Position numbers and translations under genes: made by a program. A DNA stretch of 64,000 bases from Marsupella aquatica (lineage: Eukaryota; Plantae; Marchantiophyta), in the NCBI GenBank assembly GCA_973895155.1, contig OZ316892.1, positions 25,567,233 through 25,631,232 of the forward strand, read 5' to 3'. A model generated the notes under the pieces. That model worked only from the letters and a program-made list of their open reading frames with translations. It made no database searches and was not told the origin of the DNA. This document shows, one piece after another, positions 5,852 through 41,456 of the stretch (positions are counted from its first letter, which is position 1; the number at the start of each line of letters is the position of its first letter).

Positions 5852-8800
5852 CTATTTGAATTTGTAACCCAAGTATTCAACCGAGCTCGTTCCCAAACAA
5901 GGACCTCTTCCATACTGGTAACTCTCAACTCGAGGAGGTTTGATTCGCAGTGCCCATTCTGCATCTGCTCTGGCTCCTTCCTCATCCTGTAATAAGGACT
6001 TCACCAGGCCCCTGTGTTTTAGCCTTTCATAGTCATCTGTTTCTAGCTCTAGCGCTTCATTCAAATCTACCAACGCCCTGTTTAAGTCGCCTATCATCCT
6101 TCTCAGAACTCCCCTTTCCTGCAAGCCATACGGTCTGGCGCCTCCTAATTCAATGTACTCATTGGCATCCGTGAGGGCTCCTTCAAAATCTCCCAGCTTT
6201 GCCTTCACGAAGCATCTTGCGCTGCCATCAAATAGAAGAATTTGAGTGCCTTAAAAGCGAAGACGGATCTCAAAGCCCTGGAGCTCCTTGACTCTCATTC
6301 TCCAAATTGAAGATATTAAAACTCACACCTGAAGATTAAAATCTCACAACAAATCTTAACAATTTGTGGGAATATGGATACTCAAAGTTATCATGGCTCG
6401 CTCGCTCGCTCACTCTCATTCTCTGAATTAAACATATTGTAAGTTACACCTAAAAAATTGAAATCTCATCACGAACCTTAACAATTTGTGGGAAAACGTC
6501 ATGATCCAATTAGATGTTTGAATCTGCATGCCCATTGGACCTTCAATCTAAATTTAGGATCAAGCTGAGAAGTTGTACCTTACAAGCCTACCAACCATAT
6601 CAATGGCCAGAGCATTGTCGTAGGCTTTGAGTGCTCCCTTGTAGTCTCCCATACTTACTAGTGCGTCGCCTTTGCCTTCATAAGCAGCACTGGATAGGTA
6701 CAGTCTCTCCTCCTCATTTTCATTAACTGCCAATTCATAAACTTGTGCACTCCAATATTGTAATCCGCAATCCTGATGCTTATGGTTACAAGTAAGAATT
6801 CTCAAGCTCTTCAAAGAAGGTGGGGCATCCAAAAGGGCCCTCCTAAGATAACTCTTATTTTCAACTACTGCATAACAAATGTACGTTAGTGCCTGGGTTG
6901 CATTCTTTGGTACAGCAGGGCTCACTCCCTCTCCTAGCAGTTCAACAAGCCTCCCCACTGCACCTGGATAAGATCCAATCCTGATTGCATTCACCACCAC
7001 ATCTTTGGAAAAACATGCTAAAGCCCAAGATGCTTGTTGTTGTACATCTGGGCTCACACCCTCTTCTAAAAGTCCAACAAGTCTGTCCACTGCACCTGGG
7101 TAACATCCAATCTTGGTTGCATTTACCACCACATCATAGGAAAGACATCCTAGAGCCCAAGCTGCACTTCTTTGTACATCTCGGCTCACTCCCTCTTCTA
7201 GGAGTCCAACAAGCCTGTCCACTGCACCTGGGTAACATCCAATCTTGGTTGCATTTACCACCACGTCTTTGGAAAGACATCCTAAAGCCCAAGCTGCATT
7301 CTCTTGTACAAGTGGGCTCACTCCCTCTTCTAGGAGTCCAACAAGCCTGTCCACTGCACCTGGGTAACATCCAATCTTGGTTGCATTTACCACCACATCT
7401 TGGGAAAGACATCCTAGAGCCCAAGCTGCTTGCTTTTGTACATGTGGGCTCACTCCCTCTTCTAGGAGTCCAACAAGCCTGTCCACTGCACCTGGGTAAC
7501 ATCCAATCTTGGTTGCATTTACCACCACGTCTTTGGAAAGACATCCTAAAGCCCAAGCTGCTTGCTGTTGTACAAGTGGGCTCACTCCCTCTTCTAGGAG
7601 TCCAACAAGCATGTCCACTGCACCTGGGTAACATCCAATCTTGGTTGCATTTACCACCACGTCTTTGGAAAGACATCCTAAAGCCCAAGCTGCATTCTCT
7701 TGTACAAGTGGGCTCACTCCCTCTTCTAGGAGTCCAACAAGCCTGTCCACTGCACCTGGGTAACATCCAATCTTGGTTGCATTTACCACCACGTCTTTGG
7801 AAAGACATCCTAAAGCCCAAGCTGCTTGCTTTTGTACATGTGGGCTCACTCCCTCTTCTAGGAGTCCAACAAGCCTGTCCACTGCACCTGGGTAACATCC
7901 AATCTTGGTTGCATTTACCACCACATCTTGGGAAAGACATCCTAGAGCCCAAGCTGCTTGCTTTTGTACAAGTGGGCTCACTCCCTCTTCTAGGAGTCCA
8001 ACAAGCCTGTCCACTGCACCTGGGTAACATCCAATCTTGGTTGCATTTACCACCACGTCTTTGGAAAGACATCCTAAAGCCCAAGCTGCTTGCTGTTGTA
8101 CAAGTGGGCTCACTCCCTCTTCTAGGAGTCCAACAAGCCTGTCCACTGCACCTGGGTAACATCCAATCTTGGTTGCATTTACCACCACGTCTTTGGAAAG
8201 ACATCCTAAAGCCCAAGCTGCTTGCTGTTGTACAAGTGGGCTCACTCCCTCTTCTAGGAGTCCAACAAGCCTGTCCACTGCACCTGGGTAACATCCAATC
8301 TTGGTTGCATTTACCACCACGTCTTTGGAAAGACATCCTAAAGCCCAAGCTGCATTCTCTTGTACAAGTGGGCTCACTCCCTCTTCTAGGAGTCCAACAA
8401 GCCTGTCCACTGCACCTGGGTAACATCCAATCTTGGTTGCATTTACCACCACATCATAGGAAAGACATCCTAAAGCCCAAGCTGCATGCTTTTGTACATG
8501 TGGGCTCACTCCCTCTTCTAGGAGTCCAACAAGCCTGTCCACTGCACCTGGGTAACATCCAATCTTGGTTGCATTTACCACCACATCTTGGGAAAGACAT
8601 CCTAGAGCCCAAGCTGCTTGCTTTTGTACAAGTGGGCTCACTCCCTCTTCTAGGAGTCCAACAAGCCTGTCCACTGCACCTGGGTAACATCCAATCTTGG
8701 TTGCATTTACCACCACGTCTTTGGAAAGACATCCTAAAGCCCAAGCTGCTTGCTGTTGTACAAGTGGGCTCACTCCCTCTTCTAGGAGTCCAACAAGCCT

Positions 8801-11800
8801 GTCCACTGCACCTGGGTAACATCCAATCTTGGTTGCATTTACCACCACGTCTTTGGAAAGACATCCTAAAGCCCAAGCTGCATTCTCTTGTACAAGTGGG
8901 CTCACTCCCTCTTCTAGGAGTCCAACAAGCCTGTCCACTGCACCTGGGTAACATCCAATCTTGGTTGCATTTACCACCACATCTTGGGAAAGACATCCTA
9001 AAGCCCAAGCTGCTTCCTCTTGTACAAGTGGGCTCACTCCCTCTTCTAGGAGTCCAACAAGCCTGTCCACTGCACCTGGGTAACATCCAATCTTGGTTGC
9101 ATTTACCACCACATCTTGGGAAAGACATCCTAAAGCCCAAGCTGCTTCCTTTTGTACATGTGGGCTCACTCCCTCTTCTAGGAGTCCAACAAGCCTGTCC
9201 ACTGCACCTGGGTAACATCCAATCTTGGTTGCATTTACCACCACATCATAGGAAAGACATCCTAAAGCCCAAGCTGCATGCTTTTGTACATGTTGGCTCA
9301 CTCCCTCTTCTAGGAGTCCAACAAGCCTGTCCACTGCACCTGGGTAACATCCAATCTTGGTTGCATTTACCACCACATCTTTGGAAAGACATCCTAAAGC
9401 CCGAGCTGCTTGCTCTTGTACAAGTGGGCTCACTCCCTCTTCTAGGAGTCCAACAAGCCTGTCCACTGCACCTGGGTAACATCCAATCTTGGTTGCATTT
9501 ACCACCACATCATAGGAAAGACATCCTAGAGCCCAAGCTGCACTTCTTTGTACATCTCGGCTCACTCCCTCTTCTAGGAGTCCAACAAGCCTGTCCACTG
9601 CACCTGGGTAACATCCAATCTTGGTTGCATTTACCACCACATCTTTGGAAAGACATCCTAAAGCCCGAGCTGCATGCTTTTGTACAAGTGGGCTCACTCC
9701 CTCTTCTAGGAGTCCAACAAGCCTGTCCACTGCACCTGGGTAACATCCAATCTTGGTTGCATTTACCACCACGTCATAGGAAAGACATCCTAAAGCCCAA
9801 GCTGCATTCTCTTGTACAAGTGGGCTCACTCCCTCTTCTAGGAGTCCAACAAGCTTTTCCATTGCACCCAGATAAGATCCAATCTTGGTTGCATTCTCCA
9901 AATCGTTGGACATATTTCCTATTGCCCAAGCTGCACTATTTTGTGCACTATTTTGTGCTTGTGGGCAGGGCCCCTCCCCTAACAATCCGACCAGCTTCTC
10001 CACGGCACCTGGATGTGAGACAATCTTGGTTGCATTTTTGCCCGTTTTCTGTGAAAGATATCCTAATGTCAAGGAAGTGTTTAATTGTATATCTTGGCCA
10101 ACTCCCTCTGCCAAGAGTTCAATCAGTCTCTCAACTGCACCTGAATGAGATCCAATCTTGATTGCATCTCCTACATTGTGAGAAGATAAGCCTTGGAAGA
10201 GATAAAGAACTTCTCTGAGTTGAGGTTGAAAGTCGGAATTTGTTTGGTGGAGAACAGCCATCAACGCAGGAAGGATCTCGTCTTTGCTTTCCTTGAAGAG
10301 AGGCCTTTGGTTTATGAGTGTGAATTGTAGCAAGGCTTGGCATGCACCTGAGATTGTTTCTTGCATACATAGTAAGTCAATAACCTTTTTCTCGTGCAAC
10401 TCACCCAAAAGTAGATATTCTTCAAGAATCTACACATCGCAACGGACTAGGTAAGTTAGTACAGTAGGTCTAGTACAGTCTGACTGTCTTACAGTGAATA
10501 CGCATAGCTGAACAACTTATTCCCCTCCTCTTTTGAGTGTGTGTAACTCAAAGTTGAGGCGAAAGATTCACAGCCATTGAATGTCATATTTGTTGATCCA
10601 AACCTCAAATACTGTATATGCAATTTGAGCTTATAATATATAGACTGGAATCATCCACTCATATATTTTAATGATGATAGTACACAGCTGGCCTCTAAAC
10701 AATCCAAAATTCTAAAATTCTCATTATCGTACGGGTTGAGATTCTAAAGGATTACCTCTTTGGTCGCCTGATGTGATTTCTTTTGCCACTCCTCTTCACC
10801 ATCTGCATTTAGTAGCCAGACGAATGTTCTGATTGAAGACAATGTTGAGATGCCAAGCTTGTCGGTATCATTCACAAATTGATTTACCGGAATCCCAAGG
10901 GTGCTTGCTGCTTTGTTACGCCATGACTCTTGCCCGTACAGAACTAGCAATATAGCAGCAACATTATCTTTTGTAATGTACTCCATCAACTTGGAAAACA
11001 TCAAGGCAATTTCCTCCTTCTTTATCTGACTTATAAAATTTTGTCGCATGGTATGCAAGGACCAACTCCTTTGAGGGTTATCACTTCTTAGATCTGTTGG
11101 GCTCTCTATCTGGAAGAAGTTGATGGTCTCCATGTGCTCACAGCACCTAGAGAATTTAGCCATGCTGGAGTGTATAATCTTGAACAACGTCTTGAAGACT
11201 ACTTCAGGAACAGGCTCGCTTTCAAACACAGATGCTAAGAGTAAAAGAGTTTGCTCTTCACTTGAGAAAGAACTCAACGCCATTTCTATTGATGCTCCCA
11301 TGCTGCGTTTCGAGTAAGTACGACCAAACAGAGTAACAGGTCTTTGGTCATCCCCATTCTGTAGGTCCGAAAGATATCTAACAGTAGATTCCCATTCCTG
11401 TAGTTGTGAAGCTTTTCCAACGCCTATGTTTGTTGCTACATTAGCCAACACCAAAGGGTTGGAAGCAGATTTGTCAATAATCTGATTGATTTGGGCCTGG
11501 CACAGTCAGTAAATATTAATTAGACGTATATGTATAATTGTCAGTAGCGACAATTTCTAGTCTTAGTTCACAGAACCATTTGCTCTCAAAAAATGCCAAT
11601 CCTCAGAAAATACCAGTGAACACTATTGTACGTGAACAAAATGCAGGACTAGGTTCAAACAACTATTACCTGTATATCCGAAGTCACTTCTGGTGGAAAG
11701 CCTTTAACATGGTTTGCAAGAATTTGGTTCGCCTGTTGGGAAGTCGGTAGAGAAATCGTAATTTCAGCACAAATGGCATCAGTCCACAGTCCTGGACGCT

Positions 11801-12770
11801 GAGTAGTGATTAGGTATTTAATCCCTTGCTGTTGCACCAAAAGCCTGTCTACTATCATGGAATCCCACACATCATCGAGTATAATCAGCACCGTTTGATT
11901 TGCTAGTCGAGCTGAAAGTTGCTTGTGCATAGCATCCTCAGATTGCAAAGCGAAAGGCATCTCAACAGCTGAGCTCGCTTCACCTTGGCCAGCTGACGTA
12001 GGAAGAGCTTGGTATCCCAAATCTTGCCACAATTGCAGGAGTAGGCTCTTACAGTCCGCCTTCATACCGCAACGTAAGAAAAATACACCGTCCACAAACC
12101 GTTTGGAAGCAGGGGCGATCTGAGTACCCTGACTTTGCCCTTGGCCGCCTTGAGTTGTGTCTAGGGGATCTACGCCTTCTTGGTAGAGACAAGCCAAGTG
12201 TCTCGCCATGCTGGATTTGCCTTGGCCGGGTCCTCCAGCAACTACCACAATGGGGCCAGTGTTTTCACGTTCCAGAGCCATTCGAACTGCCGTGATGGAT
12301 GCCTCAAATGGCACATATTTCCTATCGGGTACGAATGGCAGACGAGCGACTCGACAGAGAGAGGCCTTTTCAAGTTGCTGTGTTCGTTCTGCTTGCTGAG
12401 CAATCGTTCGTGATAGGGACTCAAAGGCTGTAATAACACTATCCAAAGCTCCAGTTAATGATTCCGGATACAACAGTCTTCTCCCGACCGTACAGCAAGA
12501 ATTTTGTTGTCGCTTCTGTAGCTTAAGTTGTTCCTTGTCTAGGAGCTGAATCGCCAACTCCAGCACGCGCCCAATATATGGGTCGGTGCTCATTCCATAT
12601 CTGTTTAGAAGGGATGTCCAACTGTCTGATTGCTGCTCTAGAACAGCCAATCGTAATGGAAATAACTTCATAGCTTCGGATGTTTTGTACCAATCCAAAG
12701 CAGTCTGTTGGGCAAAGGCAGTAGCCTTAGTGATCAAAGTCACCAACGCATTTGCCTCGGCAACAGCCAT
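5852..12770 (-). CDS. NLR-like STAND protein: helical (RPW8/CC-like) N-terminus - NB-ARC - ARM repeat array - TPR; ~2020 aa, 4 coding exons (12770-11670, 11496-10756, 10429-6579, 6221-5852)
   Basis: Four collinear minus-strand ORFs join in frame at GT-AG sites (phases 0, 0, 2; 6063 nt total). P-loop GGPGQGKS, RNBS-A-like FVDGVFFL, Walker B LIILDDVW, RNBS-B KYLITTQR, GLPL-like IIDKSASNPLVLA just after intron 1, MHD-like WSLHT. 44-aa ARM repeats (..GAVDRLVGLL..VQxxAAWALGCLS). TPR-like helices (KGDALVSMGDYKGALKAYDNAL; AKLGDFEGALTDA; ERGVLRRMIGDLNRALVDLNEALEL). Confidence 0.88.
6985..9900 (-). repeat. Coding tandem array of 132-bp units (44-aa ARM repeats): 21 near-identical copies plus degenerate flanking units
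   Basis: The marker GCATTTACCACC recurs every 132 bp from 7119 to 9759 (21 copies). The protein shows VVVNATKIGCYPGAVD(R/M)LVGLLEEGVS 21 times. Confidence 0.97.
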
Positions 12771-14328
12771 GATAACTTGCGGAATTATCACCTGGCTACT
12801 TGCTTGTTGCTAGCTAATTTGGCACGAGGTAGGACCAGAAGAGGTAGCCACAGGGCCATGCCGACCTGAATAGAGAGCACGAACAGCCTGTCACTGGAAG
12901 CCATCACACCATCTTTCCAAGGACTAGCCAGCTGATTGAAATCTCAAATTCAGCAGACAATACCTATGGAATGCGCTTGCCAACAGATACCGACAGCAAA
13001 ACACGCCAGCAATCAGAACGAACCACGCCCAAGGAGACCATGATTAATCCTCATACTCTGCCTCTGTGTAGCGTTTCTTTCTACATATCTCCACAAGCCT
13101 CGTAACACGTACTCAGGTTGCGGATGTTATAGCCATCTTAGCCTGTGTGATGCAGCAACTGTCATGATCTTGATCTCACTGATTCTCTAGAGTTGGATCA
13201 AGATCTTACAGTATCGTTCTCTCGCAGCCAGTATATCCGAAGCCTGCTGTAAACGTCGGTAGCTGTTGACCGTCGAGTTCAGTCCTTCGTCCCGGAGACA
13301 AGACAAATTGCAGAGTTCCGAGATAAACCTGACCTATAGACGAGCCAATTGTTATCAAGTCCCAAATTTAGTGAATGGTGAAGAAAACAGGAACGAATGG
13401 CAGATTACCCAAACTAAAACGAGTCGCGGCGAAATCAAAGGATGTCTTCCTGAGGGACACACGCGGCATCTTGCTCCCACTGATAATATTGCATCATATG
13501 GGAGCGGTTGGTCTCGAGCATAGCGCAGGGGATATACAATCCCCCAAACACTAAGATCTTTGCATAGAGTCCACACATCCAACGCCAGAAAGCGGAGAGG
13601 GCATAGTGCTATTTAGCTAGCTAGCAGAAAAGCAGGTGACAAGAACCAAGGTGCTGAACTAATGGCTTACCTCACCTCGTTTGCAGAAGAACAACCATAG
13701 CTGGTGGTTGATTTAAAAGCAATGCCCGTATACGCTCATGAGTCGAAGGCTCGTATTGGGGCCTCCCATGGAAGAAGGGCCTCCCGTCACATTTGTAGCT
13801 AACTACGGCCAATTTCCCTCGCCTTCGACCCTGCGCGCTGAGCCGTGGACTGTAAACCTGGCAGCTTGATCAGAGAAATGTACACCAACTTCGATCACAA
13901 TAACATGTACCACATCAAAGACATCGAAAATTGAAGTGATCGCAGAATTAACTTCCTTTCAAATTCCATGGCCTGGGACGAAGCTAAGCTGTAGTGAGCA
14001 GACCTGACAGCTTTCCTAGAGAGACGACTTCATCGACCAGAGAAAACGTACCACATCAGATTAGACACCGACAACTGAACTGCCCATTTCGACACCTCCA
14101 CAGATCCTTACTAGACAGTGCGCTCTTCAGATTGCGTGTGTGACTTCATTTGAGATATCCATCATTCGTGAGCTCAGAGTCTACCGATTGGAGAGATGAT
14201 GTATCTTGAGAATTCCCACCACAACTGAGTTTGGGTCGACTCGCAACCTCGCTAGACAGATTCAACTATACACTGCCTGGAACACTGCCGTGTAGATGCA
14301 AGTCATCTCTCGTCCCAGATAAGGGAAA

Positions 14329-14706
14329 CACGGCTTTGGCCATGCGAGTCCGTAATGGGTCTTTCCGGGAAGTGCATTCCGAAGGGCTCAGTTTCAACAC
14401 CAGAGATTCTCCAGCTTAGTATATTATTATTTAAGCGGATATGAGAAGCAAAAAGAGGGACCACGCGGTATAGTGGTCGGTGATCCAATGCGCCATTACA
14501 ATTACACTCATTGGAACCACGGCTTTGGGCATGCGAGTCCGTAATGGGTCTTTCCGGGAAGGGCATTCCGAAGGGCTCAGTTTCAACACCAGAGATCTCC
14601 AGCTCACTATATTATTATTTAAGCGGATATGAGAAGGAAAAAGAGGGACCACGCGGTATAGTGGTCGGTGATCTAATGCGCCATTACAATTACACACATT
14701 GGAACC
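14329..14706. repeat. Direct tandem duplication, ~189-bp unit x2
   Basis: cacggctttgg(c/g)catgcgagtccgtaatggg...cattggaacca appears at ~14329 and ~14518 with few substitutions. Confidence 0.9.
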
Positions 14707-15214
14707 AAACTTGTAAGTGGTGACATTTCGTAAGAACTAGCGTAATAGTTCATGCCCGTGCGTTCGGTGCCATCGGATCAACACCTGCCAAGGCGTCCCC
14801 ACATACTACCTCCACTTAAAGTAGATTGGATTTCAAGGCCAACATCACCAGATAGTGTCCTAATAACCCGTCCTATTTTATATCCAGTACTCATACTCAC
14901 TGACTAGGGATGCTCAGACTGACCTGGTATGGCTGATGAAAGTAGTGGTTTCAGTCAATCGTGGTAGTCCGATGAATTCCATCGGAGCATCAACTCCACG
15001 TCAACTCACGAGACAAAACAGTTTTTGTGGTGCTTCCTCTCTCTTCCCCCCCGCCCCCCTAGGCCTCCCAAGTTTCTCCACGCTGATGCTGGAAGCATAC
15101 TTCCGATACTAGACTTAAGCGATCACCCCATCACCTCCAGTACACACCTCTAGCTTAGCCAGAATCCAGCATGAAATGGGCGCGCGGCAGCTCGTACGCC
15201 TTGGGCGTGGAGAG

Positions 15215-20602: not shown

Positions 20603-21750
20603 GCGCCTCACAATGCCCTGTTAGTAAACATTACCTTACTATTGTATATACATAGAAACCACTAAATTAATATATACACGAGGAATAAATTGCATGACAC
20701 GCATGAATGGACACGTAGATATGCGATCCCAAAGAAGGGCAAGAGAACAGACACCAAAGGATCGCCGCTGTGGGTGTTTGATCTCGTAGAATTTGTTGTC
20801 TCGTTTTGCTTGAGGTCCGAATAACAAGTAACGTAAGAAGAGTTTCAGTGGAGCCCCGCAGCAAGTATTGCGCAATAACGTAGATCATGGTTCACATTTG
20901 ACGGTATTTCCGAGAGTGAGAACGAATCTCCTCTATCCGCCAGCCCAAACATGTGATTTACAATATAATACACAAGCTTGAGAGATCGAAGCCACAGATC
21001 GAGAATGGAGCGTGGCAACCTCCGTCACCGCCACTACTGCCGGAATAGATCAATGTACCGTTGAAACACAAGAGAGAGAAACTGAGCGCGTCGAATTTGC
21101 AGCTGGTTAAGGGAGATCAGATTGGGAAATAGAAATGGGGAGATGCACAGCGTTAAGACTGCCTGCCTAGGAGAAGAACCAAAAGAAAAATGGAAGAATG
21201 TCGATCGGCGCTATTACCTTTGCAGAGATCGGGATCACGATGATATTGCTTTTCACGCCTTGATTCAAGCTATAGATTGATCCATGTGGACACGTTTCTG
21301 CCAGCAGCGTTACGTAGCGAGCTGCAGGAACGCAAATGAAGGGAGCACTGTCGATCCCTGGTGGTGGTAAAGGGCGTGGATCATTTCGATGTCGACCTGA
21401 CTAACTGCAGCTTTGACAATTCGGAACAAGTACCGGTACTGGATCATCTAGTCAGAGCTTGCCTGCCAGTTTTAAAATTAACCGAAAACGACGTATTTGA
21501 GAGGTCGTTCAGAAGGATTGGACAGGTTCACAAATATTTCCGATTCCCAAATATCATCACTCTCATCCTCTCAAGTTATGATCTGAGTACACTATACTGC
21601 CTCGTCGATTTCTTCGCCAGGGTGCATCTGCAGCAGTACGACATTGGATCTATTACTACAAATAGCAGCCTGGCTAGAACTCGGAATCGTTCGTGCGTTT
21701 CGTTTTCTTCCGTGATTAATGTGCCTACATGAATTAGCTACTTAGTCAAA

Positions 21751-23187
21751 ATGTCTACTCCTGTAGGCTACACTACTCCCACTTCTACCGTTAAAACCGT
21801 ATCTAGAGCCTATACTGTAGTTGTTGTGGTATTTGTGGTTGTCTCCCTTATTAGTTGCGTTGTCCTATGGATCTACATGGCGATAAAGAAGCCCAAGTCG
21901 AACTTCTGGACGTGCTTAGGCTGCTGCCGGATCTGCGTCGGACCGTCACGTATTTCAATGAAGGAGGATCCTTCTGCCCTGGGTGCGGCAGAGAGCACGC
22001 GGAAATCCGATCGTAGAAATTCCTCCCAGAATCCAGAAGTGAGTAAGGCGTTCACATATTGGGAGCTCGTCGAGGCGACCAACGGATTCAGTCCATCAAA
22101 CATTCTCGGGGAAGGCGGTTTTGGTCGGGTGTACAAGGGTACCATAGCTGGGAACCTCGTGGCAGTGAAGCAGCTCAAACGTGGAAGTAGGCAAGGTGAA
22201 AGGGAATTTCGCGCAGAGGTAGAGATCATCAGCAGAGTACACCATCGGCATTTAGTGTCGTTGGTGGGTTACTGTATTTCAGACAGTCACAGGCTTTTAG
22301 TTTACAATTATGTCCCGAATGGCACGCTGCAAGAAGGTCTTCATGGGCCGGGAAAACCTGTCATGGATTGGGCCACCAGAATGAACATTGCTCTGGGAAC
22401 AGCTCGGGGATTAGCTTACTTGCACGAAGACTGCAACCCGAGAATCATACACCGTGATATCAAGGGTTCCAACATTCTACTTGACTTTCAGTCGGGTTTT
22501 CAGTGCGAAGCTAAGGTGGCCGATTTCGGTCTGGCCAAGCTGGCCGACGAGGCTCAAACTCATATGACTACCCGGGTCGTGGGAACCTTTGGGTACATGG
22601 CTCCCGAGTACGCAATGAGTGGTAAGCTCACAGACAAGTCAGATGTGTATTCGTTCGGCGTGGTTCTTCTCGAGCTCATTACGGGTATGAAGGCGGTCGA
22701 TCGGACTCTCCCTGGAGCTGAGTCTCAGCAGAGTCTGGTAGAGTGGGCCAGACCACGTTTGACTGAGGCTTTGGAGACTGGAAATGTGGATGCCCTTGCC
22801 GATCCACATCTGAGGCAAGACTACGAGGAGAAGGAGATGTTCAGAATGGTAGAAGTCGCGGCTATGTGTGTTCGCCGTTCATCACATAGGAGACCCAAAA
22901 TGGCGGACGCGTTGCGCAGCCTTTCAACTGAACATGGAGATCTACATCAAGGAGTTCTGCCCGGTTACAGCAACGACTTGACCGAGGGAGAAGCGGCTGG
23001 GCAGCAGCTGAGTATCTTTCAACGAATGATTAATAGCAGCTCGACCAGTGAGTCCAGTAGTGACAACGGTGGCGACAGGAGGAATGATGCGCGGGCTCCA
23101 TCTCCTTCCACCAATGACTTGGGATCTACCATCGGGGTGTACCCTGATCCATTTCTCATACTTGGTTCCGGGGATGAAATGGTCTGA
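21751..23187 (+). CDS. PERK-family-like membrane-anchored Ser/Thr receptor-like kinase, single exon, 478 aa
   Basis: Hydrophobic TM at aa ~21-45. [64 protein letters not shown] (PERK-type), [32 protein letters not shown]-like tail [10 protein letters not shown]. Confidence 0.92.
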
Positions 23188-26100: not shown

Positions 26101-27286
26101 TTGTCTCCTCTTGCCCATTGTAATTAACTTCCCTAATTTTGCTCTGGCTTAGACTTCAGAGGACTCTCCAATCTTTATAAATTGAGTGTTTTGAAATCGT
26201 GGAGAAATGGATGAAAAGTACATTCTGGGCGAGAGTTTCGCCCACATCAACATTCAGATGTGAGGGAAACTAATCAAAATTTACCGCGTGCCACTTCATT
26301 CTTCATGGTTACGTATGAGATGGAATTTGATTGGCATTCATTCATACCTGTAACATTCAAGATTCGGTTGAGACCCAGCCATGCAAGTTGTCCTAAGCTT
26401 GATAAGAAATTAAGAGCAGCAGCGTCATCACGCACCAGCTGTGCTTCGCAATTGCAGCATAATTGTGTTCACGAAAGGAAGTCATAGGACAAATCATACG
26501 CAGCATCGCCATGCTTAAGCTGTGCTTAGCAACTGCAACACAAGCATATTCGCAAAATGTAAATTATCGGAGATTTGAGGCTGTGTGCAATCGTGGCAGA
26601 CATTTATGAAAGGTTGTAAGTAATTCAAAGAATTGAAGAACAGAATTCCTTTAAGAATACTGAGCGAGTCTACTCTGTGCTCTTGCAGGAGCATCAAGCC
26701 TGCTGTAGCCATTCCACCGTCAGCCTCGTGTATGAGTGAGGGAGTCCACAAGAGGACCGTCTTGGAAGTTCATGAAGCCTGTGCTCTGACGTCGATCATG
26801 CTGACCGAAGCAGACATCATTGCCACTACGCCCCAAAGGTCATTCGCACATCAGTTGTCTGTCGCCTTCCCATTCGTTCCTTCGATTTGATTTCTTTACA
26901 GCTTTGCTTTGACCTACTCTACTCATTTCGTCCCATTTTGAGCAGCCCCTGGGTGTAACTTTTTCTCCGGATTTGCGGCTGTCATTTCGTGAAGTCAGTG
27001 TACTCTGGCCTTCGTGGGCCCACACAATCGTTCAAGATGGTCATGGAGATCACCACGAGTCAGCGTCTGAGAGGGAATATATAGGTCCTGGAGATGTCTT
27101 CTCTGGCACCAGCGCAACCTGCCGAGAGATCGTTTCAGCTGATTGACTGATTATGGAGATTGTTTTCAAGCCAAGCGACTAGTGATGGAGATCACATTCC
27201 ATCGACAGAATTGTAGTTAGTGAGAGATCATCTCACATCCATTGCCAATAAGTTGTTGCTGCGCCATCTGACCATCTTTGTTGTTG

Positions 27287-29281
27287 ATGGCCAGAGCGAG
27301 CGCTCCAGCGATGGAGAAGGCCCGCTTCATCTGGCCGCTACACTTGTCTATCTTTGGTATTGTGATTGCAGCAAAATGTGTTCTTACGGACATGACCATC
27401 GTGACCTGTCCACCAGTGTGTCCTGGTCAGGACGGGAGCAGTAGCATTGGGACAGCCAGCGAGATCTTCACGGAGAGTGACGATTCCCACAACCTCTATG
27501 GCGCCGCTGGCACGCGCAAATGCACTTCCACAGAGCATTTAGAACCGGACAGTACTGAGGGAGTGAGCGAAATTTTGGGCAAGCTCAATAACAATGCAGG
27601 CGGCGGTGTTGGCAGACAGTCTCTCAAGATAAGGGCGTCGCGCCGGGACTTCCACACCCCCAATGGTTTCGTGTGTCCGGGTCAGACATATGACGCAAAA
27701 TTGGCCAAGGGTCAAACCGACTATCTCAATTCCATCGATTCCTCGACTCATTCTGTCACCCTGCTTCTGCATCGAATGAACTCCATTGTGGAAGTGGATC
27801 ACGCGCGCCATCGATTGACAGTCGAGGCAGGCATGACTCTGCAGAACCTCGCGGACGCAGCCCTGAAGAACGGGATGTCGATTCCTGTGGGAGTCCTCCC
27901 CGTCTATGGCAACCTCACAGTAGGCGGGGTGCTCGCCACATCGGCCCATGGAACTGGGGCAGGCGTGGACAGCTCGCTGGGAGACATCGTCACCATGGTC
28001 AAGTGGGTGAACGGGCAGGGAAAGATCACCACGAGCGATATCGCCGATGAGAAGGGGCGCTTAGAAATTCGGGGTCTGCTTGGGGGAATCGGATTGTTGG
28101 GGGTCCTGTGCGAGGTGACTTTCCGATTGCTGCCTGCGGGAGCGTTGGCCCAGGTGGAGATTTGGACCAAGGAAGACTCGACCATTGCCGCCGATGTCAA
28201 GCACCAATTGCAAGCACAGACCCCTCACATCCTCTACTTCTGGAGACCTGATTTGGGCTACTACCGAGCTCTTTTCTACAAACCTCTCGAATCCGGCGAT
28301 GTGCCGGTGCATCCCTACTATCCTCGGGGAAAGGCGGCCATGATGTTGCCGCCCCCCGAAAGCGTTGCGCAACAGTATTGGGAAAACTTGGCTGTCTTCC
28401 AAGCAGATATTGACGATTCCGGTCCGGGTGCAGACTTGCTCAATGCAGCGATTTGTGAAATGTCGGAAGGATTGAAGTACCTTCCCATATTTGTGGATGG
28501 GGAGGGCGCAATTGTTTCAAACGCTACCATTCCAGCCTCGTACGCGATGATTTCAGGGGAGTGCGAGCCGACTTGCCTGTGGAGTAGACAGTACTTTGGG
28601 GCCACCACGGAGGACAGCGAGTGGGCGATCAGGCTCAGCGATCTGGATGAGTGGATAAAGGATGTGAAGGCGGTCGTCAAGGGGGAGGAAGAGGAGAGAC
28701 AGAAGCAGCTGGACAGGCGGTATGGGAAAGGCAAAGTCCGAGCCTGTATGACGCCAGGATTCTTCTGGATTCGATTTGGGAAGCCCAACGACAATCTGCT
28801 GGCTGTCAGCACGGGTATGGATGAGCCTGTGGTGTACGCCATGATGTTGTTTTATACATCGGTTCTGGTTCCCAATGCTCCTCCGAAGCACGATCACATC
28901 ACGCAGGTCATCGAGCAGCTGAGTGTCTGCAAGTATGGAGCCAGAGCGCATTATGGTAAGAACTTTGATCGCCAGTTTACGAATGAGCACTGTCCATTGC
29001 TTGACAATTTCCCGAAGCAAAATCTCTTGGAGATGAGGAAGCTGCAAGACGAGCATGATCCTTTCAGGGTGTTCGAGTCTGAGCTGTTGGGTCGAATGCT
29101 CGAGAATCGTGGTCCCGACTATGAAGACAAGTGTTCTCTGACGCACAAATGCTACTGTAAAGAGGACTCCCATTGTGCCGACGGATTCAAGTGTCAGCCA
29201 TCGGTGGTTTTCCCTGAATACAAAGTCTGTAAAGTGCAGTTTTCATACGAAGAGACCGAACTAGCGAAAGATGAACTGTGA
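27287..29281 (+). CDS. L-gulonolactone oxidase-like (GULLO/aldonolactone oxidoreductase family) FAD protein, single exon, C-terminal KDEL
   Basis: Signal-peptide-like hydrophobic N-terminus. FAD_binding_4-type motifs (TVEAGMTL, LTVGGVLATSAHGTG, GGIGLLGVLCEVT). ALO-type ARAHYGKN..HDPFRVF. Plant GULLO Cys-rich tail (CYCKEDSHC..FKC..VCK). Start may instead be the ATG at 27311. Confidence 0.85.
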   Translation: MARASAPAMEKARFIWPLHLSIFGIVIAAKCVLTDMTIVTCPPVCPGQDGSSSIGTASEIFTESDDSHNLYGAAGTRKCTSTEHLEPDSTEGVSEILGKLNNNAGGGVGRQSLKIRASRRDFHTPNGFVCPGQTYDAKLAKGQTDYLNSIDSSTHSVTLLLHRMNSIVEVDHARHRLTVEAGMTLQNLADAALKNGMSIPVGVLPVYGNLTVGGVLATSAHGTGAGVDSSLGDIVTMVKWVNGQGKITTSDIADEKGRLEIRGLLGGIGLLGVLCEVTFRLLPAGALAQVEIWTKEDSTIAADVKHQLQAQTPHILYFWRPDLGYYRALFYKPLESGDVPVHPYYPRGKAAMMLPPPESVAQQYWENLAVFQADIDDSGPGADLLNAAICEMSEGLKYLPIFVDGEGAIVSNATIPASYAMISGECEPTCLWSRQYFGATTEDSEWAIRLSDLDEWIKDVKAVVKGEEEERQKQLDRRYGKGKVRACMTPGFFWIRFGKPNDNLLAVSTGMDEPVVYAMMLFYTSVLVPNAPPKHDHITQVIEQLSVCKYGARAHYGKNFDRQFTNEHCPLLDNFPKQNLLEMRKLQDEHDPFRVFESELLGRMLENRGPDYEDKCSLTHKCYCKEDSHCADGFKCQPSVVFPEYKVCKVQFSYEETELAKDEL

Positions 29282-33404: not shown

Positions 33405-35166
33405 ATGAACATAGTGTGTGGCGGTGCCGGCGCGTTAGTGGCAGATAGATCGATGAGATTGCTGCAACTAGGTACTTCTACTTCGTTGCAGTTGAATCAG
33501 ATGGTACCAGCAGTCAGTTGCCGTCAGCCTTGGAGTCGTCCAAGTGCACGAGCATCAGCTATGGAGTATGAAGCACAATTAATCACTCTGCCGGTGGATG
33601 ATCAGGTGCCCATTGTGGATTTGGCGGAGCTCAGATGTGGTAGCCTTGACCACTCGACACACCGAGTTGCCGCAGCTTGCCGAGACTGGGGTTTCTTCCA
33701 GGTTTGTCATTCCCATCGTCTGTCCATCCCTCTCAAATTTGCTGTGGAAGCATTGCCCGGGCCCGTCTTCTGTGACCTTTAGCCTTTTCCTACAAGGTGA
33801 AATTAGGGGGACAGAAAATCGAGGGCTTTTCTGAATGTAGACTCTCTCTGGAAGATTGATCGCTAATCCTCTGTTTCGATCTTTTGAGAAAGAAAATGGA
33901 CGGGTATGTTTGGCGGTTGAAGGTAAGGATGCTTTCCCCATGTGCCGCCTCCTCTCCTACCCTAGTCTATGGTTAGAGCTGTTTATTCGAGACACTGAAT
34001 GGGCAATTGCTTCTGATTTCTCTGAATCCTCAGGTTGTCAACCACGGAGTGTCCATGGAGTTTCTCCAGAGGCTCCGCAAGCAATGTTTCGATATGTTTT
34101 CTCTACCTCCGGAGCAAAAAGACAAGATTTCTAGAAGTAGGCAAGGTTCAGGATGGGGCTATGACTTCAGACCAGATCATGGGCCGATGGAGGTGTTACA
34201 ATTAAATCCCTGGGATACCCGCCAAGTCCTCACCTATGCCAACGAATTGTTCCCCAATTCCAGCGAAGATTTCATGTAATCCGCTCTCCCTCAGCTATCC
34301 TCAGTTATTTTGATAATTTCCCCTTTTAAGAAATTACGATGTTTCAATGGCAACACTAGAGCGCCTACGCTTCAAGCAATGCTTACTTTAATGGTCTGCG
34401 ATGACAGAGCTGTATGCGAAGAAGCAAACTTGATGTTTCGCACTCTGGCTATGGAGATTCTGGACCTCTTGATACAGGGTCTGGGAGTGGATGCAAAACA
34501 TTTTCAGGCGCACAAAATTGAGTCTCAGGGGGTCCTGCGTGCCAATTACTATCACCAGTCGAAAGCACCAGATCAAGTGCTTGGCCTAAAGCCACACGTC
34601 GATGGGAACCTCTTCACAATCTTACATCAACAGGATGTCACTGGTCTGGAAGTACTCAAGGATGGAAGATGGATTCCCATCACCCCACGAAGCGATGCGT
34701 TCTGCATCAACGTTGCTGATATCATGCAGGTGGGTTGGCTCACAGATGTCACTTCTGTGGGAATCCTGCATTTCTCATTCTCATTGATGCAATTCTCGTG
34801 GACCAGTCTCTACTACGGTCTGTAGAGTAGACAAATAACATTTCTACAGAATTTTCTAAAGTCCACTCTGTTACTCACAAACGCCGGCCAAGAAGTTGTG
34901 GCCTGCAGGTTCTCTCGAATGGCATATACAGGAGCGTCCAACACCGAGCAGTGGCACCCAAGACACAAGCTCGTCTGTCCCTCGCATACTTCTTCACCCC
35001 TGCAAACGGTGTCACTCTAATTCCGGCTCCAGAGCTAGTAGACGAGGTGCACCCACCTCTGTATCGACCATTCTCTTGGGCGGACTTTGTGGAGGCAGCC
35101 AAAGTTCCAGGCCGACCCTATCCAAGCGTTCTCCCTTTCTTTGAACAAGGGCACGCAGAATCATGA
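33405..35166 (+). CDS. 2-oxoglutarate/Fe(II)-dependent dioxygenase (DOXC class); exons ~33405-33701, 34034-34275, 34408-34729, 34909-35166
   Basis: VPIVDL..AACRDWGFFQ|VVNHGV; LRANYY; HxD (KPHVD); distal His (SVQHRAV); RxS (RLSLAYF). GT-AG junctions are phase-compatible. The start ATG is uncertain (33405, 33453, 33501 or 33561). Confidence 0.9.
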
Positions 35167-36888: not shown

Positions 36889-39800
36889 AAACCAGGGAAA
36901 CCCCCAAAAAAAACTGACTGAAGGAAGGAGGCAGAGAAAAAAGAAGCAATTAAGCGGGGCAAGGAGAAGGAGCACCCCCATAGAGAAATCCATGGGATCC
37001 ACCAGCCCATACTGCCAAAAAGAAGGGGCAGTAACAGTGGGAAGGTGGAACCCCCGAACAAGGGGGACCAACAGGAAAAACTACGCCGAGCGAACCCAAG
37101 CAACCAAATGCAGCCACCATGCACCAATAGCAGCCATCCAATCAGGAAACAGCCAGGAAAGAGACTGGGCAACAGGCATACTCCATTCTCCCCAGACTGC
37201 CACTCACCACCATCTCCATATGCCACCTGCCAACCAAGTCTCAGATCCCAATAAAATCCTTGTGCTCTCACCACCAACGCCATATGTCTCCTGCTGACCA
37301 AGTCTCAGATCCCAATAATCCCTTTGTGCTCCCCTAGTCGCTCTGACTTTTGTAGTCTTGAAAAATGGGCCATGAGAATATTATCTGATGTCCTCCTGCT
37401 CAGCCATAATGCACAGCCAGATGACAGAGAACAGATTCCCCCTTCGGATGCTGAAAAGGGACCAAAGAGGGTGTCCCTAATATGGATCCAATAACAAAGA
37501 GAATATCTTGACTCTCCCCACCACTTCCCGTCGAATAAGATTCAATTTGTCTCCAACCAAAAGGAAGCAGAGTTGAACGGTAGCAGCCATATGCTGTAAG
37601 ACAGTCAGAACCTGACGGAGATGATTGGAATGTTGCCAACCTATGGATACTCGAGTGTTATAGTGGAGGAGTACAAAAATGAGGGAATACACGGAGGCCA
37701 GAAAAGTTTTCTCCAAGGCAGGAATCCTGAGAATAATTGGGAGCAAATATCCATGCTGAGAGTGCCAGCATCCCCACCGACAGTCCGGAGCAGCAACCCC
37801 AATCCTTCCATTACATCCCTCTTATATTTGAGTAGGCCAGACCAGCGGAGAATGGAGAGAGCTTGGTACCCAGAATATAACCAGGACAAGAAACCAATCA
37901 AAAATGACTGCCATAGGAGCACGACAGAAAGCAGACCTTGGCGCGCAAGAGATCCAGACATATGTTATGATCCTATTCTTACCAAGAGAATATGCTAGAA
38001 ACCTGATGGCGGTGACACGAGATGAGCCAAAGGAACCAAAAGAGGATGGTTCCGGAATCTACAATCTATACACGATTCATAATATTCGTGAAATAAAACC
38101 TGGTCTCCAAATAAATGTGCGAGGAGAAAGAATCTATATCCATAGAGAGCAACTGTAGTATCAGTCAGAACGTGAAGAAGAACATCAGCTAGGTGGCGTA
38201 ACACAGATTGGAGAAAGAATCTTGTGCAGAAAAAGAGCCATCGATACCCATCCAATGCTGAGAGAAACAACCCAGCCCATTAGCCCATACTCAGATAATG
38301 GGCCACAATAAGGGATGCCGACCGTGAGATTTCACCGACCAGGGAGCTCCAAAAAACTGTTGAGAGCCCGGACCGCTCCTTCCTCGATCCAGAAGAGACC
38401 CAGACAGCCCCATCTCGGGGAGGAAATGGGTACGGTGAATCAGCTGAGAAGCGAGGAGACACTGACCCTGGCCAGGGGGAGAGAATGACTACATAGACAA
38501 GGTGTGCGGAACAAGAGAAAAGTGAACTAGGAGCGCAAAAATCTTGGTGGTATACCAACCATTGGTAAAAAAAACAACGGGAAAAAACCAGTGGGATATG
38601 GATACCATAATTTGACATAATCCTCGGTGGAATGAGGAACAAAAGTGATTCAGCGAGCAAAACGATATGATAATGGACGTGATAAAAATTTCTCTGCGTA
38701 GTATAACCTTTTTTTCTTTTTTTCTGAATCTGAACAGATTGCTACTGAACGAAGATGCACAACGGCTGCAGATGCTGCTGTAGAAGGATCGGAGAGAAAA
38801 CTATTGATTGGCTAAAATTGGCGGGAGTTACGATTTTTCCAGAGTAACCACAAAGTTTGATATATTACAAATAGACGAGCTGAGAGGCAAGGGGAACGAC
38901 CAAGAGCAAGGTCAAGAAAGGAGGTGAAGGAGTGACCACCCGGGAGGAGAGACACTGCAGAAGCCCGTTCGTAGAACCAAGCAGTCCGGTTCCAGGCCGT
39001 CGTGGCTTGAGTGCACGTAAAAAATATGTGCTTATTATCTTCTGGGTGGCCAATGCAAAGGGGGCATATTCCATCCCCATGACCACACTGGAATGCTCTC
39101 CGGCCGGTGAACAGTCCAGCAGCCAGGACCCGCCATATAAAACTTTTCCCACGATTTGACAAATCAGATCTCCATAAACGCCTCCATCTCCTTTGCCATG
39201 TGGAAGGGGAATCAGATGAGCCCCATCTGATGTTCAGCGAACGAGAGTCTGCGCCAGATTGGTCAATAAATTTATATGCCATAACGCTACTGAGAACCCG
39301 AGGGGAACGGTGATTTTTGAGTCCCTTCCAAAACCATTGACCTGGAACAAAGGAGGAAGAACCAGATGGTGGAGGACCATCCTGCAAAAGCTGAAGTATG
39401 TTGGTAAGAACAATGATATTCAATTCCCCTAGTCCACGTATCCTAGAAATCCTGGCCGAAAAATCAATCCAAGTTCCTAAATGACTGTTCCAAAGATCTA
39501 GTACACATTGAATATTTAATCGGGAGCAAGCAGAAGAAATGAGAGGAAGAGCAGAAGCTGGGAAACATTTAGAGCGAAAGTATATTTTGAGAAGGTCTTC
39601 TATTCGCCATCTAGCAGGAATGGCAAGAGAGGAAGAGCTCCAGAGCAAGTTTCCTCGAATCTGAATCCATGCTTTCCAAATTTCTTCGGTATATCTCATT
39701 CCACGAAAACTCGATGGGGATGAGAAAAGGAATCTGTCCATTGGAGTGTATCCTGATGATCGGAGGAGAACCGACTGTTTCCATGCAGCCAAACGAATGT

Positions 39801-41456
39801 TAGCAGAGAATAGCAATGACCAATCCGAAGAAGGATCAGTAATCATCCTAACCGACCATCTTGCGAGTAGGGCCGAGGCTTGTGTTTGGATATCTTTAAA
39901 TCCAAGACCTCCATCCTGTTTTCTGCAACACATTCGTTCCCAAGGCACAAGAGGTGTTTTTCTGCCACCGTCTTTATTATATCCCCAAAGGAAGTCTTTA
40001 CATGTCTGGCGAATCAAGTTAGAGAGGCTACCAGCTATACGTGTATACATCATATGGTAAACCGTCATTGACAACGAAACTTGTTTTATCAATAGAACAC
40101 GTCCAGTGAAGGACAAATTTTTGTTAGACCAGCTAGAGAGCAGACTCTTTAGTTTTTTCATACAAAAGTCTTGTACCTGTTGGTGGGAAATATCTTGTCC
40201 AAACGGAGCTCCAAGATAGCACGAAATCTGTCCTTGCGGGACAACAATTACATTTGAGTCTATTAGCCATTGCGGAATAGATTCTAGACAAAAAGTAAGG
40301 ACCTCAGTCTTTTCTAAGTTTAACTTTGCTCCCGCAGCCAACTCATAAATCTCCAACTTTTGTCTTATTTCAAGAAAACAGGATTCCATTGCAGGGGTGA
40401 ATACCCCGAGATGATCTGCAAAGAATCGATGGAAAAGAGTAAGATCGTTGTTTATCTTAATGCCTTGCACCTCGCCAGCCAAGAGCGCCGCATCAAAGAA
40501 GTCCATTAATGGCTGGGTGGACAATGCATAAACCAGTGGGGCAAGGGGACAGCCTTGTCGAACGCCACGCAATAAATGGATAGGCTGAGAGAATTGTCCG
40601 TTTACGTGTACCTTCGCTGTGGCATTGGTCATTAGACTCATTATTCTACTGATAAACATCGGACTCAATCCAGACGAAGCCAGAGACTCTCTTATGTATC
40701 TATGATCCACTCGGTCAAAGGCTTAGCAAAATCCATTTTCAGAAACATGCCGGGACATTGTTTGGTTTGAGCCAATCGCTAGCCAACCATGCGATAGATA
40801 TGTTGTCGAGAATCTGCCGTCCAGGGACAAACCCTGTTTGTTGATTATTTACCATCTGAGGAAGAAACCTAACGAGCCGGATAGCAATGAGCTTAGCGAT
40901 TATTTTATAGGAGATGTTTAGGAGAGTAATCGGTCTCCAGTTAGACAGTGACTTCTTGTCAGAGGATTTAGGAACAAGCTTAATAACCCCTTCCAAGAAT
41001 CGTGGTAACATTATACCGTCATTCCAGAAAGAAAGGAGCATAGCAAGAAAACCCGGAGCTATGAAGTCCCAACATCCCAAAAAAACCTCAATGGTAAGAC
41101 CGTCGAGACCGGGAACTTTATTTTTTTGAATTTGCTGTGCAGCACTGAAGAGTTCCACGCTAGTCGGAGCCGAGTCTAGGAAGTGAATGTCAGATTCAGA
41201 TAAGCGAGAGGAGGAGAAACTAAGGATACTCCTCCATGCTGCTATATTCAGCTCAGACTCCGGGGCGTCAGGGGAATACAAGGCACTATAGAATTTACCC
41301 ACCTCAGTGAGGATCAGATTTCTATCAGAAGTGGTCGAACCATCAGCTAGACGCACGATAGGGTTTTGTGCCCACGGGCCCTTTGCGGAATAAAGTTTCG
41401 GGGCTCATTCCCCCTCTTTAAAAATAAAATTTTAAATTTTAAATTTTTTTTAAAAA
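36889..41456. mobile_element. 5'-truncated L1-clade LINE, internally inverted, flanked by a 16-bp target-site duplication AGTTCTTGCACAATTA (36873-36888 and 41457-41472)
   Basis: Exact 16-bp direct repeats at both ends. RT and zf-RVT coding region on the minus strand. A plus-strand AATAAA (41389) and A/T-rich tail lie just before the right TSD. Confidence 0.82.
38812..41356 (-). pseudogene. LINE ORF2 fragment (reverse transcriptase + zf-RVT), inactive
   Basis: KVPGLDG, NWRPITLLNISYKIIAK, QTGFVPGRQILDNI, frameshift near 40725, RGVRQGCPLAP, catalytic motif FADD altered to FADH, YLGAP, CPLC..EDNKHIFFTC. The endonuclease domain is missing. Confidence 0.92.

Follow-up and report, generated by a model that had tools for sequence, protein, structure and literature searches.

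A candidate immune-receptor gene of the liverwort Marsupella aquatica carries near-identical armadillo repeats that vary on one predicted face

We examined a 64,000-nucleotide stretch of the genome of the liverwort Marsupella aquatica (assembly GCA_973895155.1, contig OZ316892.1, positions 25,567,233 to 25,631,232; hereafter the window, with positions counted from its first letter), which holds on its minus strand a predicted receptor gene with a long array of near-identical armadillo (ARM) repeats. In the predicted protein, a helical N-terminus, an NB-ARC domain, and a further helical region are followed by about 25 ARM units, all encoded in one exon, and then by TPR repeats. The units differ from one another mainly at a few codons, which are predicted to face the binding groove of the ARM fold. 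We consider it fairly probable that the array is the ARM sensor of an immune receptor, with a recognition surface diversified by recombination among near-identical repeats.

Near-Identical Repeats That Differ at Few Positions

TRF identified a 132-bp unit repeated 22.6 times at 6918-9895 on the minus strand (94% matches, 0% indels, score 5203), and the Pfam Arm family matched 21 stretches of the array frame, a 1,289-codon open reading frame on the same strand, with E=3e-110. These searches bear out the near-identical ARM repeats that a preliminary description had proposed from the letters alone. For comparisons among units we used a core set of 20 units of 44 amino acids (7124-9763, minus strand), delimited by cutting the frame into units and supported by an ARM model and Foldseek (below), and left out five more diverged units at the edges. 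The core units had a mean nucleotide identity of 96%, and 9 of their 44 codons varied. Variable residues were at positions 25, 26, 29, 30, 33, and 40, with a single change at position 14; Trp33 was present in 18 of the 20 units, and position 37 was Cys in all 20. Fourteen of 21 units were distinct, and outside the variable sites the unit was net acidic (four acidic vs. two basic residues). The 22 adjacent residue pairs of the preliminary description (EN, KH, RS, and so on to RS, QQ) agreed with ours, in order, and unit cutting confirmed its further variable sites (P/R/Q, L/H/D, W/R, and K/Q/Y) and its two recurring synonymous variants (TTA/CTA and GAT/GAC). It did not list a lone R-to-M change that we found in the unit at 7520-7651. 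The plus strand carries an antisense frame of 1,058 codons without stops (6985-10161; chance about 0.16), which is expected because one stop-free unit frame is repeated.

Parts of the gene were present in five sequencing runs, and contigs of four of these, from two studies, were compared; the best of them may be the source from which the window itself was assembled. Short reads are reported to misassemble repeat arrays of this kind (PMC12222747; papers are cited by PMC number for the portions of their text that were accessible). The stretch upstream was covered in 30 of 30 bins in all four runs. Head-to-tail joints of the unit were found in contigs of all four, and the array is therefore real DNA and not an invention of the assembly. 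The contigs are short, so the objection of an assembly artefact, raised in the preliminary description, is answered for the existence of the array, with number and order of units aside. Runs X3 and X4 carried variants beyond those of the core units: G36A (13 and 11 contigs), W33G (three in each), second- and third-letter changes in codon 30 (three in each), and, off the groove defined below, E20Q (five in each); rarer ones among the variants listed were at positions 24, 27, 32, and 41. Repeat-to-flank depth ratios were 13-23, a rough measure that is not a copy number. In runs X1 and X2, one or two further copies with about 90% identity were seen over 9764-12900; these close paralogs or homeologs might be partners in repeat exchange.

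Amino Acid Changes and Recombination Among Units

The 20 core units are separated by a minimum of 16 nonsynonymous and three synonymous changes. Thirteen of the 16 nonsynonymous changes fall in a groove set of seven codons (26, 29, 30, 33, 36, 37, and 40) that makes up 15.5 of the 92.9 nonsynonymous sites (binomial P=3e-8). The nonsynonymous rate in the groove was 9.2 times the synonymous rate and 0.43 times that rate elsewhere, and the excess of nonsynonymous change that had been anticipated at the variable codons was thus found, by a counting method. All four gametes were present for 7 of 45 informative site pairs, which indicates recombinant units, also as anticipated. Seven of the 19 variant letters are transitions and 12 are transversions. 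CpG hypermutation was excluded as the source of the variable sites, based on this share of transversions and on the absence of CpG from the unit.

Placement of the Variable Residues

Modeled from an alignment, the linker and first units (pLDDT 93, pTM 0.90) had three helices per unit, with helix 3 at unit positions 25-39. Foldseek matched this model to designed ARM proteins, Vac8, importin-alpha, and beta-catenin (TM 0.64-0.78), and the matches listed were all ARM proteins. A single-sequence fold gave a beta-alpha-alpha solenoid (pLDDT 70, TM about 0.3 to ARM proteins) and was dropped for the alignment-based model. In alignments with importin-alpha, position 33 coincided with its Trp and position 37 with its Asn. 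On a 100-degree helical wheel, positions 25, 26, 29, 30, 33, 36, 37, and 40 (and also 41) lie within 80 degrees of Trp33, and the invariant hydrophobic residues point away from the Trp33 face. Heterozygosity in the window units was 0.405 at groove positions vs. 0.029 at other polar, Gly, or Pro positions. The variable residues are thus predicted to line the concave groove; the preliminary description had named scattered variation as an outcome that would speak against its proposal, and in the wheel and the model they occupy a single face of helix 3.

Designed armadillo binders offer a comparison for this placement. Their pockets are randomized at seven residues (5AEI 155, 159, 162, 194, 197, 198, and 201; PMC12202725), and a repeat offset of 42 residues is implied for them (PMC11228518). 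As far as these sources describe them, the randomized residues reduce to a spacing of 0, 3, 4, 7, and 10, which corresponds to positions 26, 29, 30, 33, and 36 of our unit. The fourth residue of the designed spacing is, we presume, a Trp.

Related Liverwort Proteins and the NHAT Class

An exhaustive protein search with exon 1 returned 76 matches at E up to 0.001; a word-based search with the same exon for longer proteins found no match. Thirty of the 76 were looked up and 25 clusters could be named, all from liverworts (Calypogeia fissa, Riccia, and Marchantia) and none from an angiosperm or a lycophyte. The nearest full-length relative, P0002 in our numbering of the family, is 42% identical to exon 1 and 46% identical to exon 2. 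The cluster P0016/P0078 corresponds to MARPO_0095s0062 (Mapoly0095s0062, MpNBS-LRR15). Exon 1 (28% identity, E=4e-43), exon 2 (22%, E=1e-17), and exon 4 (53%, E=8e-36) each matched P0078, so that all three non-repeat exons are homologous, and both genes have an ARM array. Mapoly0095s0062 is the example gene of the NHAT class described in 2025 (Dong et al., PMC12513842), and NHAT is among five bryophyte resistance (R) gene types that gave cell death when overexpressed in N. benthamiana (PMC12513842, Extended Data Fig. 6). On sequence homology to the example gene, and not by the authors' own definition (Supplementary Note 4/Fig. 18), the window gene is a predicted member of the NHAT class. An NB-ARC tree with 28 rows put the 25 rows of the family together at 98/97 against only three long-branch outgroups, which were labeled by Pfam content and sample the outgroup weakly. 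A profile search of 7,997 candidates found four members of the family plus an ARM protein unrelated to it, and an Atlas feature search with P0078 scored only 0.85-0.86 and was not used. Four relatives (P0013, P0057, P0060, and P0072) have a longer, alpha/beta-hydrolase-looking N-terminus on the same NB-ARC family, with no Pfam match at 1e-4; because P0013 sits in the window gene's own clade, this suggests swapping of N-terminal domains.

Repeat homogenization recurs in this family. A published criterion for high internal conservation is at least 85% repeat identity over 100 amino acids (Dyrka 2014, PMC4986451). Four of the 25 long family proteins reached it (the window protein at 100%, P0013 at 100%, P0045 at 91%, and P0067 at 91%), and P0002, at 74%, fell below it. 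These four are not one group in the NB-ARC tree, a statement read from the tree and not from a formal one-clade test. Scaffold identity was 25-59% between arrays and 74-99% within them, and the nearest unit lay in the same protein for all 71 units compared. In P0067 from Calypogeia fissa the array is a three-unit super-repeat (44, 46, and 45 amino acids) homogenized by class, and the array of P0013 likewise has a three-unit period.

Variation in three of the related arrays fell at the same positions as in the window array. Groove heterozygosity exceeded that of the remaining positions in P0013 (0.43 vs. 0.10, P=0.002; 11 of 12 units), in P0045 (0.52 vs. 0.18, P=0.002; 13 of 14 motif-found units), and in P0067 (0.49 vs. 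0.11, reached in 0 of 100,000 shuffles within three unit classes; 13 of 16 units). It also exceeded that of other polar positions in all three (0.16-0.22). The related arrays carry small or hydrophobic residues at the variable sites. P0045 has Asn at position 37 in 13 of 13 units, and Cys37 is therefore not family-wide.

Interpretation and Alternatives

A recombination-diversified recognition surface, as the preliminary description had proposed, agrees with a domain in the sensor position, variation on one face of helix 3, an excess of nonsynonymous changes, and recombinant units. What found no support is the code like that of TAL effectors that was part of the proposal. Under the reading we favor, unequal crossing-over and gene conversion would homogenize the scaffold and shuffle variants among units, a process of which the signs of recombination may be the trace, and selection may well maintain the variants at groove positions. 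Judging from fold and position, adjacent repeats could then jointly bind a foreign or modified protein. Binding would switch the NB-ARC domain, whereupon cell death would be triggered by the helical N-terminus, by analogy with STAND biology and with the cell death reported for a relative.

Several observations weigh against this reading. Against the variable patch's own synonymous sites, the excess in the groove is 3.3-fold (P=0.04), and the ratio of nonsynonymous to synonymous change for the whole unit is 1.9. The counts are small numbers of minimal changes, made without a phylogeny or codon model, and the groove set was written after the window units had been seen and was fixed beforehand only for the relatives. 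Unit order revealed no higher-order period of significance (P=0.33). In P0002, the nearest of the full-length relatives, the groove excess did not reach significance (0.55 vs. 0.37, P=0.11; 8 of 19 units). The cell-death report concerns a relative that is 22-53% identical and whose repeats (P0016) are only 59% alike. The groove placement is drawn from homology and helical periodicity, and the identity of the N-terminal domain is a lead. Because paralogs with about 90% identity are present, the variants seen in the sequencing runs are not assignable to alleles of this locus.

The same counts could reflect neutral turnover, in which recent tandem expansion and concerted evolution left differences only where they were tolerated. 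There were only 19 minimal changes in total, the whole-unit ratio and the patch-only P value are as given above, and close paralogs are available as possible donors. All three synonymous changes fall in codons 25-41 (P=0.045), so both kinds of change could have come with a patch that is older or has been converted. However, synonymous sites should be freer to change than surface residues, yet they changed three times in 33 sites, compared with 13 changes in 15.5 groove sites. The exposed residues of helices 1 and 2 are invariant, and three separately homogenized arrays vary at the same positions, which makes neutral turnover unlikely in our judgment. It is more likely that a protein surface is read by several repeats jointly than that the array follows a one-repeat-one-letter code. 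In a true modular code, each repeat would read one dipeptide of an extended peptide and the order of repeats would spell the target. Positions 26, 29, 30, and 33 (with 36 in other samples) do share the spacing of engineered pockets, Trp33 is retained in most units, and a limited alphabet recurs among the 14 distinct units. The code that had been proposed, similar to the repeat-variable di-residues of TAL effectors, was not supported, as six sites vary and not two and the backbone-binding Asn is replaced by Cys. The loss of this Asn ladder in every core unit, together with the six variable sites, makes a strict modular code less likely. A ligand of about 40 extended residues would moreover be needed for 21 repeats, and neighboring pockets, as described for designed proteins, share residues. 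We regard this alternative as improbable.

Two other roles seem more doubtful still. The array could recognize polymorphic host proteins in self/non-self discrimination or act as a developmental scaffold, but we know of no vegetative fusion in liverworts, there is no evidence here for such a partner, and the family is classed, in the literature at hand, as R genes. The best-studied analogues are allorecognition genes, with HET-D/HET-E recognizing HET-C (PMC12222747), and rice RLS1 was first linked to senescence (PMC10030324); even so, we give this role little credence. An array that reads nucleic acid, in the manner of TALE or PUF proteins, would use the E/K/Q/R and N/Q/H/S/E pair to read bases and Trp33 to stack. 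The alphabet at positions 29 and 30 does, we assume, resemble that of base-reading residues, but the unit is net acidic outside its variable sites, small or hydrophobic residues stand at the corresponding sites of related arrays, and every fold match listed was an ARM protein. This makes nucleic-acid reading very improbable.

A bolder form of the favored interpretation would see in these genes a programmable armadillo receptor library that arose naturally and more than once in liverworts, in which 44-residue modules with a small pocket alphabet, each of defined specificity, are reshuffled by recombination and sit on an NB-ARC cell-death switch. We think this rather unlikely, but if it were true, the array would be nature's equivalent of designed armadillo binders, from which plant immune receptors could be made to order. 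Diversity in plant receptors is usually attributed to point mutation of LRRs and gene duplication. Here, a land-plant receptor family appears to have taken up a fungal strategy, in which near-identical repeats carry a small number of diversified contact residues, at least four times and with ARM repeats as the scaffold. Its natural pocket variants fall where engineers randomize armadillo binders. The finding opens a way to study the function of a class that received its name as late as 2025: with a small number of variable residues at known positions, specificity is directly accessible to repeat swaps.

Gene Structure and Neighborhood

The gene was modeled with four exons joined at GT-AG borders (12770-11670, 11496-10756, 10429-6579, and 6221-5852, minus strand), predicting a protein of 2,020 amino acids with no stop in the frame; two alternative first donors would lengthen it by 2-3 amino acids. 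Exon 1 (11670-12770), supported by an open reading frame, includes the start ATG, the N-terminal helical domain, and the first part of NB-ARC (PF00931, 26 bits vs. a cutoff of 23.5). An intact P-loop, GGPGQGKS, was identified from the sequence and a motif table at 12213-12236, and Walker B, VLIILDDV, lies downstream of it within the same exon. The N-terminal domain spans about 125 amino acids (12396-12770, borders approximate) and is a candidate MLKL/RPW8-like cell-death domain. It had no Pfam match, and Atlas feature scores of the N-terminal 140 amino acids to MLKL_N, MCAfunc, and RPW8 clusters were 0.81-0.85, below 0.9, which makes the assignment a lead only. Exon 2 (10756-11496) encodes the remaining NB-ARC and helical domains. 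Exon 3 (6579-10429), supported by its open reading frame, Pfam, and the model, encodes a helical linker, about 25 intron-free ARM repeats, and the first TPR. Its core units are flanked by three more diverged N-terminal units (9764-10170, the left border exact and the right approximate) and two more diverged C-terminal units (6860-7123). Exon 4 (5852-6221) encodes TPR repeats (TPR_1, E=4e-6, 26.9 bits, slightly below the cutoff of 27.8), a family-typical C-terminal tail, and the stop TAG. An N-terminal domain, NB-ARC with P-loop and Walker B, and ARM and TPR repeats together make up a STAND/NLR architecture. The gene is not a canonical NB-LRR, as LRR families were absent at E up to 0.1 from all four exon frames.

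Several smaller features were found in and around the gene. A 12-bp duplication at 9932-9958, in the first diverged ARM unit, is missing from runs X3 and X4. Intron 3 holds a duplicated 91-bp element with 79% identity (6283-6372 and 6404-6494), and a 188-bp tandem duplication (95% identical, 14324-14707) lies about 1.5 kb upstream of the start codon. No other NB-ARC or ARM gene belonging to this family occurs in the window. Elsewhere it contains a receptor-like kinase (21733-23187), a GULLO-like FAD oxidase (27272-29281), and an exon of a 2OG-Fe(II) oxygenase (34280-34825), all on the plus strand, and a LINE-like reverse transcriptase with zf-RVT in separate frames (38812-41404, minus strand).

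Comparison With Known Systems

The preliminary description had presented the array as a candidate for an undescribed system, which claims too much: NHAT has been named (PMC12513842), NB-ARC-ARM proteins have been described in rice and Selaginella, and plant NLRs with near-identical repeats have been reported (PMC13449251). The NHAT example gene shares with the window gene a homologous N-terminus, NB-ARC, an ARM array, and a TPR tail, and both belong to one NB-ARC clade. The example cluster has 12 diverged ARM repeats with a best identity of 59%, whereas the window gene has about 21 near-identical repeats with a hypervariable groove, and the accessible text of PMC12513842 does not mention repeat homogenization. 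CC-NB-ARM proteins also have a helical N-terminus, NB-ARC, and ARM instead of LRR. They include rice RLS1, first tied to senescence and also linked to cell death resembling a hypersensitive response (PMC10030324), an NB-ARC-ARM expansion in Selaginella (PMC8559963), and fern CC-NB-ARMs (PMC12512272). RLS1 has three ARM motifs and, in the accessible text, no TPR is described, in contrast to the window gene with about 25 ARM units and TPR. The word "armadillo" is absent from the main texts of the Chia preprint, the Marchantia pangenome paper, and PMC12513842, and our full-text literature search, with subscription papers and large supplements beyond its reach, found no homogenized hypervariable ARM arrays in plant NB-ARC proteins.

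TAL effectors have tandem repeats that are nearly identical and contain two neighboring hypervariable residues. They differ from the window array in fold and host, and the window units vary at six sites. Designed ARM proteins and importin-alpha share the fold of the window array and its pocket spacing. The window array is natural, is fused to NB-ARC, and has a 44-residue unit with Cys in place of the backbone-binding Asn; in designed armadillo binders, a ladder of such Asn residues grips the peptide backbone (PMC6838082). NLRs with near-identical, site-diversified repeats occur in fungi and also in animals, plants, and bacteria according to a 2026 survey, which covered the repeat types ANK, TPR, WD40, and LRR and left out HEAT-type solenoids (PMC13449251).

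The comparison with HET-D/HET-E of Podospora, made in the preliminary description, is apt. Like these fungal proteins, the window gene encodes a predicted STAND receptor whose sensor repeats are nearly identical, with a small number of hypervariable codons on the putative binding surface (13 of 16 changes in seven codons, by the counting method) and with recombinant units. The fungal proteins combine NACHT with WD40, whereas the land-plant gene combines NB-ARC with ARM and TPR and so lies outside the HNWD (HET-NACHT-WD40) family; the likeness is one of organization, and we claim no homology.

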